A stretch of DNA of 40,540 nucleotides, taken from assembly GCA_964637665.1 (NCBI GenBank), contig CAZWUX010000005.1, positions 932 to 41,471 on the forward strand. The letters are read 5' to 3'. Positions within the stretch are counted from its first letter, which is position 1. Each line of letters starts with the position of its first letter. This DNA is from an uncultured Anaerolineae bacterium (GTDB lineage: Bacteria > Chloroflexota > Anaerolineae > Aggregatilineales > UBA3940). Under the pieces are notes generated by a model that was not told where the DNA came from, did not search any database, and saw nothing but the letters and a program-made list of their open reading frames with translations. The position numbers were made by a program, and so were the translations under genes. Shown piece after piece: positions 19,162 to 23,079 of the stretch.

Positions 19162-20592
19162 ATGACGATCCGCTTTGGAACGGACGGATGGCGCGCGGTC
19201 ATCTCCGAGACGTTCACCTTTGCCAATCTGCGCCTGCTCGCGCAGGCGATTGCCGACCTGATTCTGGAGGAGAACGACGACGGCGAGCACCACGCCGTCG
19301 TCGGGTTCGATACGCGCTTCCTCTCCGACCGCTACGGGCACGAGGTCGCCCGCGTGCTGGCCGGGAACGGCATCCGCGTGCTGCTCACATCCTCCGATGC
19401 GCCTACGCCCGCCGTCTCGTACACGGTGAAGAACACCGGCGCGGCAGCCGGGGTCATGATCACGGCCAGCCACAACGCGCCGCGCTACAACGGCGTGAAG
19501 CTCAAAGCGGCGTTTGGCGGGGCCGCCCTGCCGGATCAGGGCCGCCGGGTGGAGGTCCACCTGCGCGACAACGAGGAACGGGCGCGCGGCCCCAACCTGA
19601 TCGACTTCACCTTCGCCGAGAATCAGGGCTTGATCGAGCTTTTCAACCCCGCACCCGCCTACTACGCTCACCTGCGCACGCTCGTCGACCTCGACGCGAT
19701 CTGTCAGGCGGACCTCGGCGTGATCCACGATCCGATGTACGGGTCGGGCCGGGGGTACATTAAGGCGCTGCTGGGCGGCGTCGGCTGCCAGGTCCACGAG
19801 GTCCGGGGCGAGATGAATCCCGGCTTCGGCGGCATCCACCCGGAGCCGCTGGGTAAGTACCTCGCCGCGCTGGCCGCCGCGCTCCAGTCCGGGTTCGGGT
19901 CGGTCGGCATCGCGACGGACGGCGACGCGGATCGCATCGGCGCGATGGACGGCACGGGCCGCTTCGTCGATCCGCACCGCATCTTCGCGCTGGTCCTGAA
20001 ATACCTCGTCGAGGAACGCGGGCAGACCGGCTGCGTCGTGCGCACCGTCTCGACGACCCGCATGATCGACCGGCTGTGCCAGCGCTACGGGCTCGATCTG
20101 CACGAGACGCCCGTCGGCTTCAACCACATCGCCGATATCATGCTGACCGAGGACGTGCTGATCGGCGGTGAGGAGTCGGGCGGCATGAGCGTCAAGGGCC
20201 ATATCCCGGAGGGGGACGGCATCCTGATGGGTCTGCTGCTGCTTGAGGTGATCGCCAAATCCGGCAAGCCGCTCGAAGCGCTGGTGGATGAGCTTGAAGC
20301 GGATGTCGGCCCGGCGCACTACGCCCGCACCGATCTGCGCCTCAGCCGTCCGGTGATCAAGGCAGAGATGGTCCGACAGCTTTCTGAGGATGCGCCGGAT
20401 AAGATCGCCGGGGTCGGCGTGGCCGAGGTGTCGACCATCGACGGAGTGAAATACATCATGGCCGACGATAGCTGGCTGTTGATCCGCCCCAGCGGCACCG
20501 AGCCGGTGCTGCGCGTGTACGCCGAGGCGACGAACGAGGCGCTCCGCGCGGGATTACTGGCCTACGGACAGGAGATCGCGGAATCGGTGTAG
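19162..20592 (+). CDS. Phosphoglucomutase/phosphomannomutase family protein
   Basis: Active-site TASHNAPRYNGVK, metal loop DGDADR and sugar loop GGEESGG. GGAGG upstream of the ATG. Confidence 0.9.
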   Translation: MTIRFGTDGWRAVISETFTFANLRLLAQAIADLILEENDDGEHHAVVGFDTRFLSDRYGHEVARVLAGNGIRVLLTSSDAPTPAVSYTVKNTGAAAGVMITASHNAPRYNGVKLKAAFGGAALPDQGRRVEVHLRDNEERARGPNLIDFTFAENQGLIELFNPAPAYYAHLRTLVDLDAICQADLGVIHDPMYGSGRGYIKALLGGVGCQVHEVRGEMNPGFGGIHPEPLGKYLAALAAALQSGFGSVGIATDGDADRIGAMDGTGRFVDPHRIFALVLKYLVEERGQTGCVVRTVSTTRMIDRLCQRYGLDLHETPVGFNHIADIMLTEDVLIGGEESGGMSVKGHIPEGDGILMGLLLLEVIAKSGKPLEALVDELEADVGPAHYARTDLRLSRPVIKAEMVRQLSEDAPDKIAGVGVAEVSTIDGVKYIMADDSWLLIRPSGTEPVLRVYAEATNEALRAGLLAYGQEIAESV

Positions 20593-20614
20593 CAGATTCT
20601 CATCCGGTTTCACA

Positions 20615-20642
20615 CGCTCCGCATTCGTGCGGGGCGTTTTTT
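20615..20642 (+). terminator. Rho-independent terminator of the PGM/PMM gene
   Basis: CGCTCCGCA-ttcg-TGCGGGGCG followed by TTTTTT. Confidence 0.8.
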
Positions 20643-22419
20643 GTATGTGACAATACTTATATAGGAACTAAAAACAATGGTATATAATGAGTCTTAACCC
20701 ATTACCCGGCAGCTTAACAGGTGTACGAAAATGAAGAGCCAGCGCAGCGATACTCAGATTATACATACAAAGTCAGGCCAGCCGCGTTTTGTTATCCATG
20801 TGAGCCACAAGGGACTCAATCAATATCAGGCGATACGTGCAACCAGTCGCTTTGAGGCAGAGCAAAAAGCTCTGGCAAAGATGGCCCAGTGGGATCAAAT
20901 GTGGGAACGTAAGCAGAAGACCGAACAAAAGAAAGAAACCATAGAGAATAAGAAGGAACTAGCCGCGGATCGAACTGAAGCTGCACAAAAGAGTCTTCAT
21001 GACCTGGAGACGCTTCTAGTCGATGGCTTGAACCCACACAACCCGCTTCCCCGCCCGGAAGAACCAAAATTACCTATCGGGCCAGTTCATCCGGCTATTC
21101 CCTCCGAACCCAAGCTCACAGATCCGGCTTACAACGTTGAACTCACATTTGTGCAAAAAGTGCTGGAAGCTCTCATACCTCCCCGGAAAGAATCGAGGGA
21201 AAGCGAGCTGAAGGTTCGCTATGAACGAGATCACGCGAAATGGGCAAAGGAAAGACAGGTGATGCTTTCTGAGTATGAAGCGCGCCTAGCCCAGCAGAAG
21301 AAGCGTGTTCAGCAGTTGAAAGCACAGCATCAGAAAGAGATAGCGGGCTGGGAGAAACTCCTAGAAGACTACCGGGCAGGGAAGTCCAACGCTGTTCTTC
21401 AATATTGTCTGGCCGTGCTGGCTAAGTCGAGCTACCCGACGCAGTTTCCACCGTCCCGCAAACTCCATTACAACGCCAACACAAAAATGCTCGTCATAGA
21501 TTATCAATTTCCCGCGCCGGATGATTTGCCCACCTTGAAGGAAGTAAGGTATATCCAGTCACGAGATGAGTTTGACGAAAAACACATCAGTGATGCCGAG
21601 CTACGAAGAAGATATGACCAGGTCTTATATCAAATAGCGCTCCGTACGCTCTACGAATTATTCAAGCTGGACGATGCCGAAGTTATCGATGCAATTGTCT
21701 TTCACGGATTAGTTGAATCAATCGATCCATCGACGGGACAAGAGGTGTATGCGTGCGTCTTATCTGTGATGACGAAAAAAGATGAGTTCATGCAAATAAA
21801 CTTGGAGAACGTCGATCCCAAGGCGTGCTTCAAGAAACTCAAGGGGGTTGGTAGTTCAAAGCTGCACAGTCTAACCCCAATTGCTCCTGTCTTAGTCTTG
21901 AATAGGGAGGACAAACGCTTTATCGAAGGGTATAAGGTGGTGGATGGCTTGCAAGAGGGCGATAACCTTGCGGCGATGGATTGGGAGGATTTTGAGCACC
22001 TCGTCCGTGAGTTATTCGAGAAAGAGTTTTCAGGACCGAACAGTGAGGTAAAGGTGACTCGTGCCAGCCGTGATGGCGGCATCGACGCCGTCGTGTTCGA
22101 TCCTGATCCCCTGCATGGGGGCAAAGTGGTTATTCAGGCCAAGCGATACACCAATACGGTGGGGGTTTCCGCCGTTAGAGACTTATATGGCTCTGTTATG
22201 AATGAGGGGGCTAACAAGGGCATACTGGTCACGACATCAGATTATGGCCCTGATGCCCATCAGTTTGCAAAGGACAAACCGCTCGTGCTGCTGAGCGGCA
22301 GCAATCTCCTTCATCTACTCCAAAAACATGGGCATAAAGCCTATATTGATCTAAAAGAGGCAAAGTCCATTCTCGCAGAGGATAAATAGCGAGGTTCGTG
22401 TTGCCGAATCACCCCATAA
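20643..22419. other. Low-G+C single-gene islet between convergent housekeeping genes
   Basis: Two 60-nt samples inside it that I counted by hand gave 48 % and 52 % G+C. A 60-nt sample at the 3' end of nfi gave 67 %. AT-rich upstream region carries TGgTATATAAT (20679-20689). Confidence 0.6.
20731..22389 (+). CDS. 552-aa fusion protein: Lys/Glu/Gln-rich coiled-coil-like N-terminus, uncharacterised middle domain, C-terminal Mrr-type (PD-(D/E)xK, Mrr_cat) restriction endonuclease domain
   Basis: The C-terminus DWEDFEHLVRELFEKEF...SRDGGIDAVVFD...KVVIQAKRYTNTVGVSAVRDLYGSV...GILVTTSDYGPDA matches the Mrr catalytic-domain pattern (D ... Q/E-x-K). AGGTG lies 8 nt before the ATG. Confidence 0.8.
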   Translation: MKSQRSDTQIIHTKSGQPRFVIHVSHKGLNQYQAIRATSRFEAEQKALAKMAQWDQMWERKQKTEQKKETIENKKELAADRTEAAQKSLHDLETLLVDGLNPHNPLPRPEEPKLPIGPVHPAIPSEPKLTDPAYNVELTFVQKVLEALIPPRKESRESELKVRYERDHAKWAKERQVMLSEYEARLAQQKKRVQQLKAQHQKEIAGWEKLLEDYRAGKSNAVLQYCLAVLAKSSYPTQFPPSRKLHYNANTKMLVIDYQFPAPDDLPTLKEVRYIQSRDEFDEKHISDAELRRRYDQVLYQIALRTLYELFKLDDAEVIDAIVFHGLVESIDPSTGQEVYACVLSVMTKKDEFMQINLENVDPKACFKKLKGVGSSKLHSLTPIAPVLVLNREDKRFIEGYKVVDGLQEGDNLAAMDWEDFEHLVRELFEKEFSGPNSEVKVTRASRDGGIDAVVFDPDPLHGGKVVIQAKRYTNTVGVSAVRDLYGSVMNEGANKGILVTTSDYGPDAHQFAKDKPLVLLSGSNLLHLLQKHGHKAYIDLKEAKSILAEDK

Positions 22420-23079
22420 CTAAAACGCCCCGGCCAGATTATGCGCGGCGCGGATCGGCTCAGGCAGCCGGTAGCGAGTCGCGCAGCGCAGCACGAGTTC
22501 CCGCGCGGTGTCGAACGTCGCCCGATGCCCCGGCGAGACGAACACCGGCTTGACGTTCGTCCGCGTGCGCAGCACGACGCCCACCTGCTCGCCCCGATCG
22601 ATCAGCGGGGAGAACGATCCCTTCTCCGCACCCGGCTCGACGTACGCGCCCGTCAGGCGCGATTTCGCGCAGCCGACGGTCGGCGCATCCCACCACAGCC
22701 CGATGTGACTCGCTATCCCGATGCGGCGCGGATGGGCGATCCCCTGCCCATCGAAGATGTAAACGTCCGGCTTGCGGTCGAGCTGTGCGTGCGCGGCGAG
22801 GATCACCTCCCCTTCACGGAAACTCAGCAGCCCGCTGATATATGGGAACGGCGTCGGCATCCGCGCGGTGGCCGATTCGACCATCTCCAGGCCGGGGAAG
22901 GTCATCACGACGATGGCCGCCCGGCTGATCCCCCGCTTCACGCTCACGTCGACACCCCCGATGAACTGCACCGCGTCCACGTCAATGGGCGTCGTGATGT
23001 CGACCTGCGCGGCGAGATCTTTTTGAAGATGAATCGCGTCGCGCAGGGTGAGGTTCCAGAGATGCGAGATAGCGGGCAT
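22420..23079 (-). CDS. nfi: Endonuclease V (deoxyinosine 3' endonuclease)
   Basis: LQKDLAAQV..., IGGVDVS, PYISGLLSFREG and IFDGQGIAHPRRIGIASHIGL...TVGCAKSRL are canonical. Confidence 0.9.
   Translation of the reverse strand: MPAISHLWNLTLRDAIHLQKDLAAQVDITTPIDVDAVQFIGGVDVSVKRGISRAAIVVMTFPGLEMVESATARMPTPFPYISGLLSFREGEVILAAHAQLDRKPDVYIFDGQGIAHPRRIGIASHIGLWWDAPTVGCAKSRLTGAYVEPGAEKGSFSPLIDRGEQVGVVLRTRTNVKPVFVSPGHRATFDTARELVLRCATRYRLPEPIRAAHNLAGAF

Follow-up and report, generated by a model that had tools for sequence, protein, structure and literature searches.

The stretch of DNA analysed here (the window; 40,540 nucleotides from an uncultured Anaerolineae bacterium) carries, between two convergent core genes, a single open reading frame (ORF; 20731..22389, + strand) of 552 amino acids (aa), which encodes a stand-alone Mrr-type nuclease of the PADLOC PDLC03663 family. 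On the left lies a native PGM/PMM gene (19162..20592, + strand; Pfam PGM_PMM_I-IV; G+C at third codon positions, GC3, 0.883) that is 84.7% identical to its orthologue in the relative G004, and its intrinsic terminator (20614..20645, + strand), a 10-bp stem (20614-20637) followed by a T-run with a hairpin centroid energy of -17.4 kcal/mol (z = -2.75), forms the left edge of the islet. On the right, a 30-bp spacer between the convergent stops (22390..22419) leads to nfi (22420..23079, - strand), the native gene for endonuclease V (Pfam Endonuclease_5, E = 9e-73; GC3 0.845). The AT-rich region upstream of the ORF (20646..20730, + strand), read directly from the letters, contains a perfect TATAAT (20683-20688) that lacks a good -35 partner; 7 nt ahead of the ATG it has the ribosome-binding site AGGTG (20719-23). 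The original prediction, made from the letters of this DNA, had placed a promoter-like region here; this amounts to no more than the TATAAT, and a consensus scan for a full sigma-70 promoter on the + strand upstream of the ORF found no match. In the assembly the ORF is called as a protein of 375 aa (P0002) that starts at the internal Met178, a call that omits window positions 20731-21261 and with them the conserved head and first helix described below; since the first 177 residues of the longer frame align with homologues from their residue 1-3, the 552-aa reading is the correct one. Many database entries of the family, ~325 aa long, resemble this mis-called start, and the idea that short 'middle + Mrr' proteins of that size form a separate architecture was rejected, most of them being mis-called starts or fragments.

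In 300-bp windows the G+C content is 0.44-0.54 across 20650-22449 as opposed to 0.62-0.71 in the flanks; the ORF itself has 49.2% G+C in a 65% genome and a GC3 of 0.535, against 0.82-0.88 for five neighbour genes. When the 4.9-Mb assembly was cut into 1660-bp windows (mean 0.650, standard deviation 0.034) the gene stood at z = -4.6, and 9 of the 9887 windows genome-wide were as low in G+C. The compositional anomaly that had been suspected from hand counts (48-52% against 67%) is real and far beyond chance, it extends to codon usage, and because it sits in synonymous positions it cannot be explained by amino-acid content. Eleven further low-G+C islets (≤52% in the 65% genome), twelve with that of the window, were found in the genome (C7:21601-23660, C139:8801-10860, C144, C155, C407 and six others); these encode mostly ORFans, with five of the six longest ORFs scanned lacking a Pfam match, and a 539-aa ORF in C139 having a sub-threshold match to an nSTAND1 NTPase.

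The whole-chain AlphaFold2 model (36-sequence alignment; mean predicted local distance difference test, pLDDT, of 81) divides the protein into five regions, all encoded on the + strand. The head (aa 1-38; 20731..20844) is a small basic beta-meander with strands at residues 9-12, 18-26 and 31-37 (pLDDT > 90) and with residues H26 and L29 invariant in the alignment; its mean isoelectric point (pI) is 9.4 over 36 sequences and 9.2 over 25, and it has no Pfam match and no PDB sequence match. The whole-chain Foldseek search returned dsRBD-like matches, with no query range reported, a hint as to the fold of the head. A predicted coiled coil follows (aa 39-215; 20845..21375), made of two long helices (residues 40-93 and 140-215); the Pro-rich linker between them varies in length across the alignment. 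The proposal that the first ~200 aa look coiled-coil-like is in agreement with this, although it had overlooked the beta-module at aa 1-38. Next comes an acidic alpha/beta core domain (aa 216-372; 21376..21846), which the model shows at residues ~219-370, with invariant R305, E309, D314, G326 and G336, and then a low-confidence conserved linker (aa 373-413; 21847..21969; pLDDT < 50 over residues 374-393) with the invariant columns KLKGVGSSKLHSLTPIAP ... D394-x-R396-F397. The C-terminus (aa 414-552; 21970..22386) was identified by both Pfam and Foldseek as an Mrr_cat PD-(D/E)xK nuclease domain. No membrane segment was found in the protein (maximum hydropathy 1.09).

The middle ~200 residues had been described as lacking a recognisable domain, and this held: residues 1-405 had no Pfam match even at E-values up to 10, and the core domain, which when folded alone from 71 sequences gave a pLDDT of 85 and a predicted template modelling (TM) score of 0.79, had no PDB-sequence match, no strong PHROG match and no confident PDB fold match (best E = 4e-3, TM 0.23), matching only uncharacterised phage proteins in the viral fold library. 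The core is acidic throughout the family (pI ~4.8, net charge ~-9). Fold searches showed a weak resemblance to SfiI, HincII, RecE, UL24 and cap-snatching endonucleases; however, a role as a second active PD-(D/E)xK nuclease was rejected, since D257, E271 and K273 are conserved in only 49, 55 and 60 of the 71 sequences, respectively, and the window protein has an Arg at position 273 of this D257...E271-x-K273 pattern, which falls on consecutive strands. The core is at most a degenerate nuclease-like fold, and because its D/E-x-K pattern is not invariant the protein is not a nuclease tandem. A second candidate, an SRA-like reader as hinted by long alignments to AspBHI and MspJI, was also rejected, the isolated domain (pLDDT 85) matching neither.

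In the profile search Mrr_cat (PF04471) matched aa 414-530 with E = 6e-33 over profile positions 2-115 of 115, scoring 113.8 bits where the curated cut-off is 21, in accord with the original prediction of one 552-aa protein with a C-terminal Mrr domain recognised by its GIDAV and VIQAKRY motifs, both of which are present. The putative catalytic residues E422, D452 and Q469-A-K471 (codons at 21994 for E422, 22084 for D452, 22135 for Q469 and 22141 for K471) are invariant in 36 of 36 family sequences, and because of this the nuclease is predicted to be active. The best matches of the whole model by Foldseek were to AspBHI (E = 5.6e-6) and MspJI (E = 8.6e-6), followed by AF1548, Cdn1, Can2 and Rpb5. 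MspJI and AspBHI are Type IIM modification-dependent enzymes (PDB 4f0p, 4oc8) in which a reader domain precedes the PD-(D/E)xK domain in one chain, and the TM-scores of the matches were low (0.17-0.23); their N-terminal domain is SRA-like, whereas the window core, as noted above, matches neither enzyme when searched alone.

Against the PADLOC models the protein matched PDLC03663, 'mREase_IV', with E = 1.1e-61, its residues 148-538 aligning to positions 144-531 of the 544 in the model. This alignment spans the second helix, the core and the Mrr domain, leaving unaligned aa 1-147 of the window protein (the head and first helix) and the first 143 positions of the model, and it does not depend on the nuclease, as the non-Mrr fragment 1-405 matched the same model with E = 7.4e-31. 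Judged by these profile matches the gene is a member of an already catalogued family and not an unlisted candidate; thus, of the earlier description as an uncharacterised single-gene defence candidate, the first part agrees with our finding no experimental work, while the family already stands in PADLOC and, in many genomes, under the name 'restriction endonuclease'. Compared with classical Mrr (E. coli Mrr; Rv2528c, PMC11279042), the protein shares the catalytic family PF04471 with its D...QxK and upstream Glu, and is likewise a single polypeptide without a methyltransferase partner; in place of the Mrr_N winged helix, for which it has no Pfam match, it carries the 405-aa head, coiled coil and acidic core. 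SNIPE (PD-Lambda-1) is similar in that one protein forms the whole defence nuclease, its nuclease part being conserved while the N-terminal regions vary; in SNIPE these regions are adaptors in a system that tells phage DNA apart spatially (PMC13190303). DUF4041, GIY-YIG and a membrane anchor are all absent from the window protein, and the link between the two is only through the shared scaffold described below. CoCoNuTs, also of a Type IV context, likewise pair extensive coiled coils with nucleases; these, however, are McrBC systems with a GTPase and predicted RNA targeting (PMC11090510), and there is no McrB or McrC gene at the window locus.

The family is large. A word-indexed protein search found at least 7999 significant homologues; among the 120 matches listed, most were 514-650 aa long (a few up to ~800) and 47-75% identical over near full length, some carried zinc-ribbon or RNase_T N-terminal additions according to their Pfam annotations, and the database name, where given, was 'restriction endonuclease'. 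A pattern scan with one genome per species found full-length relatives in at least 557 species from most bacterial phyla, and there are archaeal members as well, in ANME-2 and in Methanobacterium (P0072). In an even sample of 401 genomes from the phylum of the window genome, 14 carry the gene, a sparse distribution. At 77 homologue loci it lies on average 6.6 G+C points below its flanks, and up to 33, and the tree of 90 homologues requires 38 changes of phylum as against a minimum of 21. Copies were also present on 21 plasmid records, some of only 16-50 kb, and phage records yielded nothing beyond a weak Mrr-domain match. Two pairs in the tree stand out, namely near-identical copies (branch lengths 0.035) in metagenome-assembled genomes of Bacteroidota and Ignavibacteriota (L042 and L047), and an ANME-2 archaeal copy that is sister to an Ignavibacteria copy (L063 and L070); these cross-phylum and cross-domain cases look like either very recent transfers or binning errors.

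No conserved partner gene was found at 84 homologue loci, where no neighbour family occurred at more than nine and the recurring ones were generic; because there is no recurring specific neighbour, the gene appears to work alone, which together with the intact, invariant catalytic residues accords with the stand-alone nuclease effector that had been predicted. The adjacent genes matched 123 PADLOC families as compared with 64 matched by genes 7-8 positions away (148 proteins in each set, E ≤ 1e-10; the counts are of families, not of proteins). One of the four long contigs inspected is a clear defence island, with genes for McrB-like and PDDEXK_7 proteins, Fic and PIN/MazE.

To trace the history of the locus we searched 40 related genomes, 23 of them in the taxonomic family of the window genome. 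Full-length homologues were present in three of these 23, each at a different locus and with 54-60% identity, far under the 74-85% of the flanking core genes, and one further diverged copy was found in the same order. In one of the relatives, G010, the homologue and nfi are on different contigs and the neighbours of the homologue are unrelated genes. Only G004 has PGM (85% identity) convergent with nfi (74%), and there the slot (L011:1032-1475, equivalent to window 20646-22419) is occupied by a 147-aa gene of native G+C whose product has an NPTTGYRWE motif and is chagasin/Inhibitor_I42-like. The comparison of this junction in relatives, as had been suggested, shows that related genomes do not all carry the nuclease gene here, and the proposed horizontal acquisition is supported by the foreign composition, by the patchy, non-syntenic distribution and by the different gene in the slot of G004. 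In eight other relatives PGM is not on the flank downstream of nfi (~2-7 kb, contig ends limiting some), and the PGM-nfi junction cannot be generalised as an insertion hotspot, the synteny being kept in G004 only. In G010 the gene immediately upstream of the nuclease homologue is an Inhibitor_I42 gene (L026:9311-9706); a link between the two was set aside, as no I42 cluster recurs among the 84 loci, and the co-occurrence is probably a leftover of local synteny.

The region between head and nuclease is not confined to proteins of this architecture. A search of a library of 1.84 billion representatives found the core domain in 3083 clusters (50% identity). In G158 a nuclease-less protein of 491 aa consisting of coiled coil and core, 28% identical to the window protein (PDLC03663 positions 10-382, E = 1.5e-34), is encoded by a gene that overlaps the start of a DUF4041-T5orf172 gene (PADLOC PD-Lambda-1/SNIPE, E = 3e-104), the scaffold gene being translationally coupled to a SNIPE-type gene; the product of the latter in this two-gene unit (L121:556-3457) is anchor-less and has an N-terminus of PxGW repeats. 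In G249 the module follows DUF4236 and there is again no nuclease. In P0309 the same core stands ahead of TerB_N/TerB/TerB_C, an effector of the type of the Shango TerB component (SngA-like), whereas in the window gene the Mrr nuclease takes the place of TerB and there are no helicase or ATPase partners. P0254 combines HIRAN, the module and Mrr, and in P0358, P0275 and P0348 the module is preceded by an RNase_T head, in some cases with HEAT repeats. HIRAN, as known from HLTF, binds 3' DNA ends and RNase_T is a family of 3'-5' exonucleases; because these two occupy it, the head slot repeatedly holds modules that bind or process DNA ends. We tentatively suggest, while regarding it as rather doubtful, that coiled coil and core (R305-x3-E309-x4-D314) form an undescribed portable switch or scaffold that couples interchangeable nucleic-acid-binding heads (the basic beta-module, HIRAN, RNase_T and DUF4236) to interchangeable effectors (the Mrr nuclease, the Shango TerB and, in trans, a SNIPE-type nuclease). 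Were this so, it would define a modular class of defence proteins whose discrimination of self from non-self is independent of DNA modification, and the catalogue label 'Type IV methyl-directed' would be wrong for the whole of this family of 3083 clusters. For the source genome the gene is routine, one more acquired restriction-type gene; its interest lies in a scaffold of ~400 conserved residues without a known fold that recurs in components of Shango and SNIPE, both of them defence systems with experimental validation, and in the possibly mistaken Type IV annotation, which has apparently been applied to thousands of genes on the nuclease domain alone.

Taken together, we consider it quite probable that the product acts by itself as some kind of defence nuclease, and we lean, with a good deal less assurance, to the more specific reading that the islet is one acquired gene for a soluble defence nuclease under the control of its scaffold. 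The Mrr_cat PD-(D/E)xK domain would then be the effector that cuts DNA, as its invariant catalytic residues suggest; the basic head would probably touch nucleic acid, judging by its charge and by the HIRAN and RNase_T domains that are swapped for it in relatives; and the coiled coil would probably unite two or more nuclease chains (PD-(D/E)xK enzymes generally require two active sites per double-strand cut). The acidic core would probably gate or relay activation, as suggested by its conservation, its charge and its portability between effectors, and for the trigger, some structural feature of the invading DNA or a component of the phage would be more likely than the reading of a modified base by the core. 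Several points count against scaffold control and a defence role. What head, coiled coil and core would each do is deduced from a structure prediction, from charges and from the domains exchanged in relatives; modification-dependent enzymes are what the PADLOC name and the top fold matches (AspBHI and MspJI) point to; no experimental study of a protein with this architecture came up in literature searches; the comparison of defence contexts is crude, counts families and shows a difference of no more than about two-fold; on three of the four long contigs inspected, the neighbours are all housekeeping genes; and the grouping of the window copy in the tree, discussed below, would also fit an older acquisition within the lineage.

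The annotation of the family corresponds to a classical Type IV restriction enzyme, in which the N-terminal or middle region would read 5-methylcytosine (m5C), 5-hydroxymethylcytosine (hm5C), N6-methyladenine (m6A) or a similar base and the Mrr domain would cleave nearby, and we hold this to be a real possibility, if not the reading we would choose. The Mrr_cat domain, the 'mREase_IV' match (E = 1e-61) and the top PDB fold matches to AspBHI and MspJI all fit it, as does the lack of a partner methyltransferase on the contig and of a conserved partner gene. A cognate methyltransferase is indeed missing: the C5-cytosine methyltransferase PF00145 had no match in the genome (89% complete), and PF01555, PF02086 and PF02384 matched only on other contigs, giving the host three methyltransferases of N6/N4 type. 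With PF00145 unmatched, the host would tolerate an m5C-directed enzyme, and its predicted methyltransferase set seems compatible with one directed at m5C or hm5C, while not being diagnostic. What speaks against such an enzyme is chiefly the core, which is consistently acidic and in isolation matches no SRA, PUA, EVE or winged-helix structure; neither Pfam nor the core fold search recognised any modified-base reader (SRA, PUA/EVE/YTH, winged helix/Mrr_N, DUF3427) in the protein. In addition, the module occurs elsewhere in fusion with a TerB effector and as the partner of a SNIPE-type nuclease, and self/non-self discrimination by SNIPE is spatial and not modification-based (PMC13190303); moreover, the 'methyl-directed' or 'Type IV' label of PDLC03663 appears to derive from the Mrr_cat domain only, in an architecture of which no experimentally studied member was found in the literature. 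Of the three functions originally offered (modification-dependent restriction, abortive infection and a toxin-like module) the nuclease effector common to them stands, while strict modification dependence is the least supported, given the acidic, non-reader core and the non-Mrr effectors. An abortive-infection or toxin-like action, with a phage cue freeing the Mrr domain so that the cell's own DNA is degraded too and the infected cell dies, strikes us as unlikely. It would suit a single gene without an immunity or modification partner and a scaffold that also couples to a TerB/Shango-type effector, the acidic core could serve as an autoinhibitor, and Mrr_cat is an effector in Lamassu, Avs and NLR-like systems (bioRxiv 10.1101/2024.07.02.601686; PMC9122126); but neither an NTPase nor any other sensor domain is recognised in the window protein, the HIRAN and RNase_T heads of relatives suggest direct engagement of DNA over the sensing of proteins, and the present data do not separate self from non-self cleavage.

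Two further explanations concern where the gene came from and whether it serves defence at all. In the tree of 90 homologues the window copy clusters with its own taxonomic family and other Anaerolineae (SH-like approximate likelihood ratio test, SH-aLRT, 91-94; moderate support), and the gene is lower in G+C than its hosts family-wide, which could reflect constraint and not recency; both would fit an old family resident that has moved around the chromosome, its low G+C kept by selection or by a Lys/Glu-rich composition. We think this quite improbable, however, as the GC3 deficit of 0.3 (0.535 against ~0.85) goes beyond amino-acid content, and as full-length copies are restricted to the three family genomes, at different loci and with the low identities given above. 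In addition, at the locus of G021, from the same family, the G+C content is ~51% and the gene is compositionally native, and because of this a lower-G+C relative as donor accounts for both the tree and the composition; the simplest history is acquisition from such a relative within the class, the synonymous sites having not yet ameliorated. A defence role would have to give way if the product were a nuclease of DNA repair or recombination, or a decaying, functionless passenger, for which one could cite the position beside nfi, itself a repair endonuclease gene, the classical Mrr beside nfi in G024, and the HIRAN and RNase_T heads of relatives, which are typical of DNA-repair proteins. We give this very little credence: the adjacency to nfi is not conserved, the gene is patchily distributed in the phylum (present in 14 of 401 genomes), its ORF is intact and retains all residues that are invariant in the family, and the tree indicates frequent transfer across phyla.

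The Mrr gene of G024, a genome from the same order as that of the window, is of the classical type (Mrr_N-like winged helix and Mrr_cat, 284 aa; L137:6744-7598), lies 22 bp upstream of nfi and has a G+C content of 57-62% compared with 70-76% in its flanks, making it a second, independent Mrr-type gene beside nfi. The mechanism by which the window gene was inserted is not visible at the locus, which has none of the hallmarks of a mobile element or genomic island that were sought (integrase, transposase, tRNA, direct repeats and terminal inverted repeats): there is no direct repeat flanking the islet, no tRNA and no Rfam family on the contig, and, in keeping with the original observation that no methyltransferase, integrase or transposase is nearby, four DNA-methyltransferase Pfam families, the tyrosine recombinase PF00589 and the rve transposase PF00665 had no match on the contig. 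No terminator was found on either strand between the convergent stops of the nuclease gene and nfi, which is consistent with a recent, unpolished insertion; without one in 22390-22419, each transcript would run antisense into the other gene. An imperfect inverted repeat with arms of 18 nt brackets the islet, the left arm (20630..20647; core CGGGGCGTTTT) being the tail of the native terminator and the right arm (22415..22432) overlapping the last codons of nfi (…AGAF and stop), with 11 of 11 positions of the core paired. These arms were rejected as the ends of a mobile element, since G004 has the same complementarity between terminator tail and nfi end around a different gene (L011:943-960 and 1497-1514), in letters that differ from those of the window; the complementarity may be a chance product of G-rich codons followed by TTT/TAG, or a relic of a shared bidirectional terminator.

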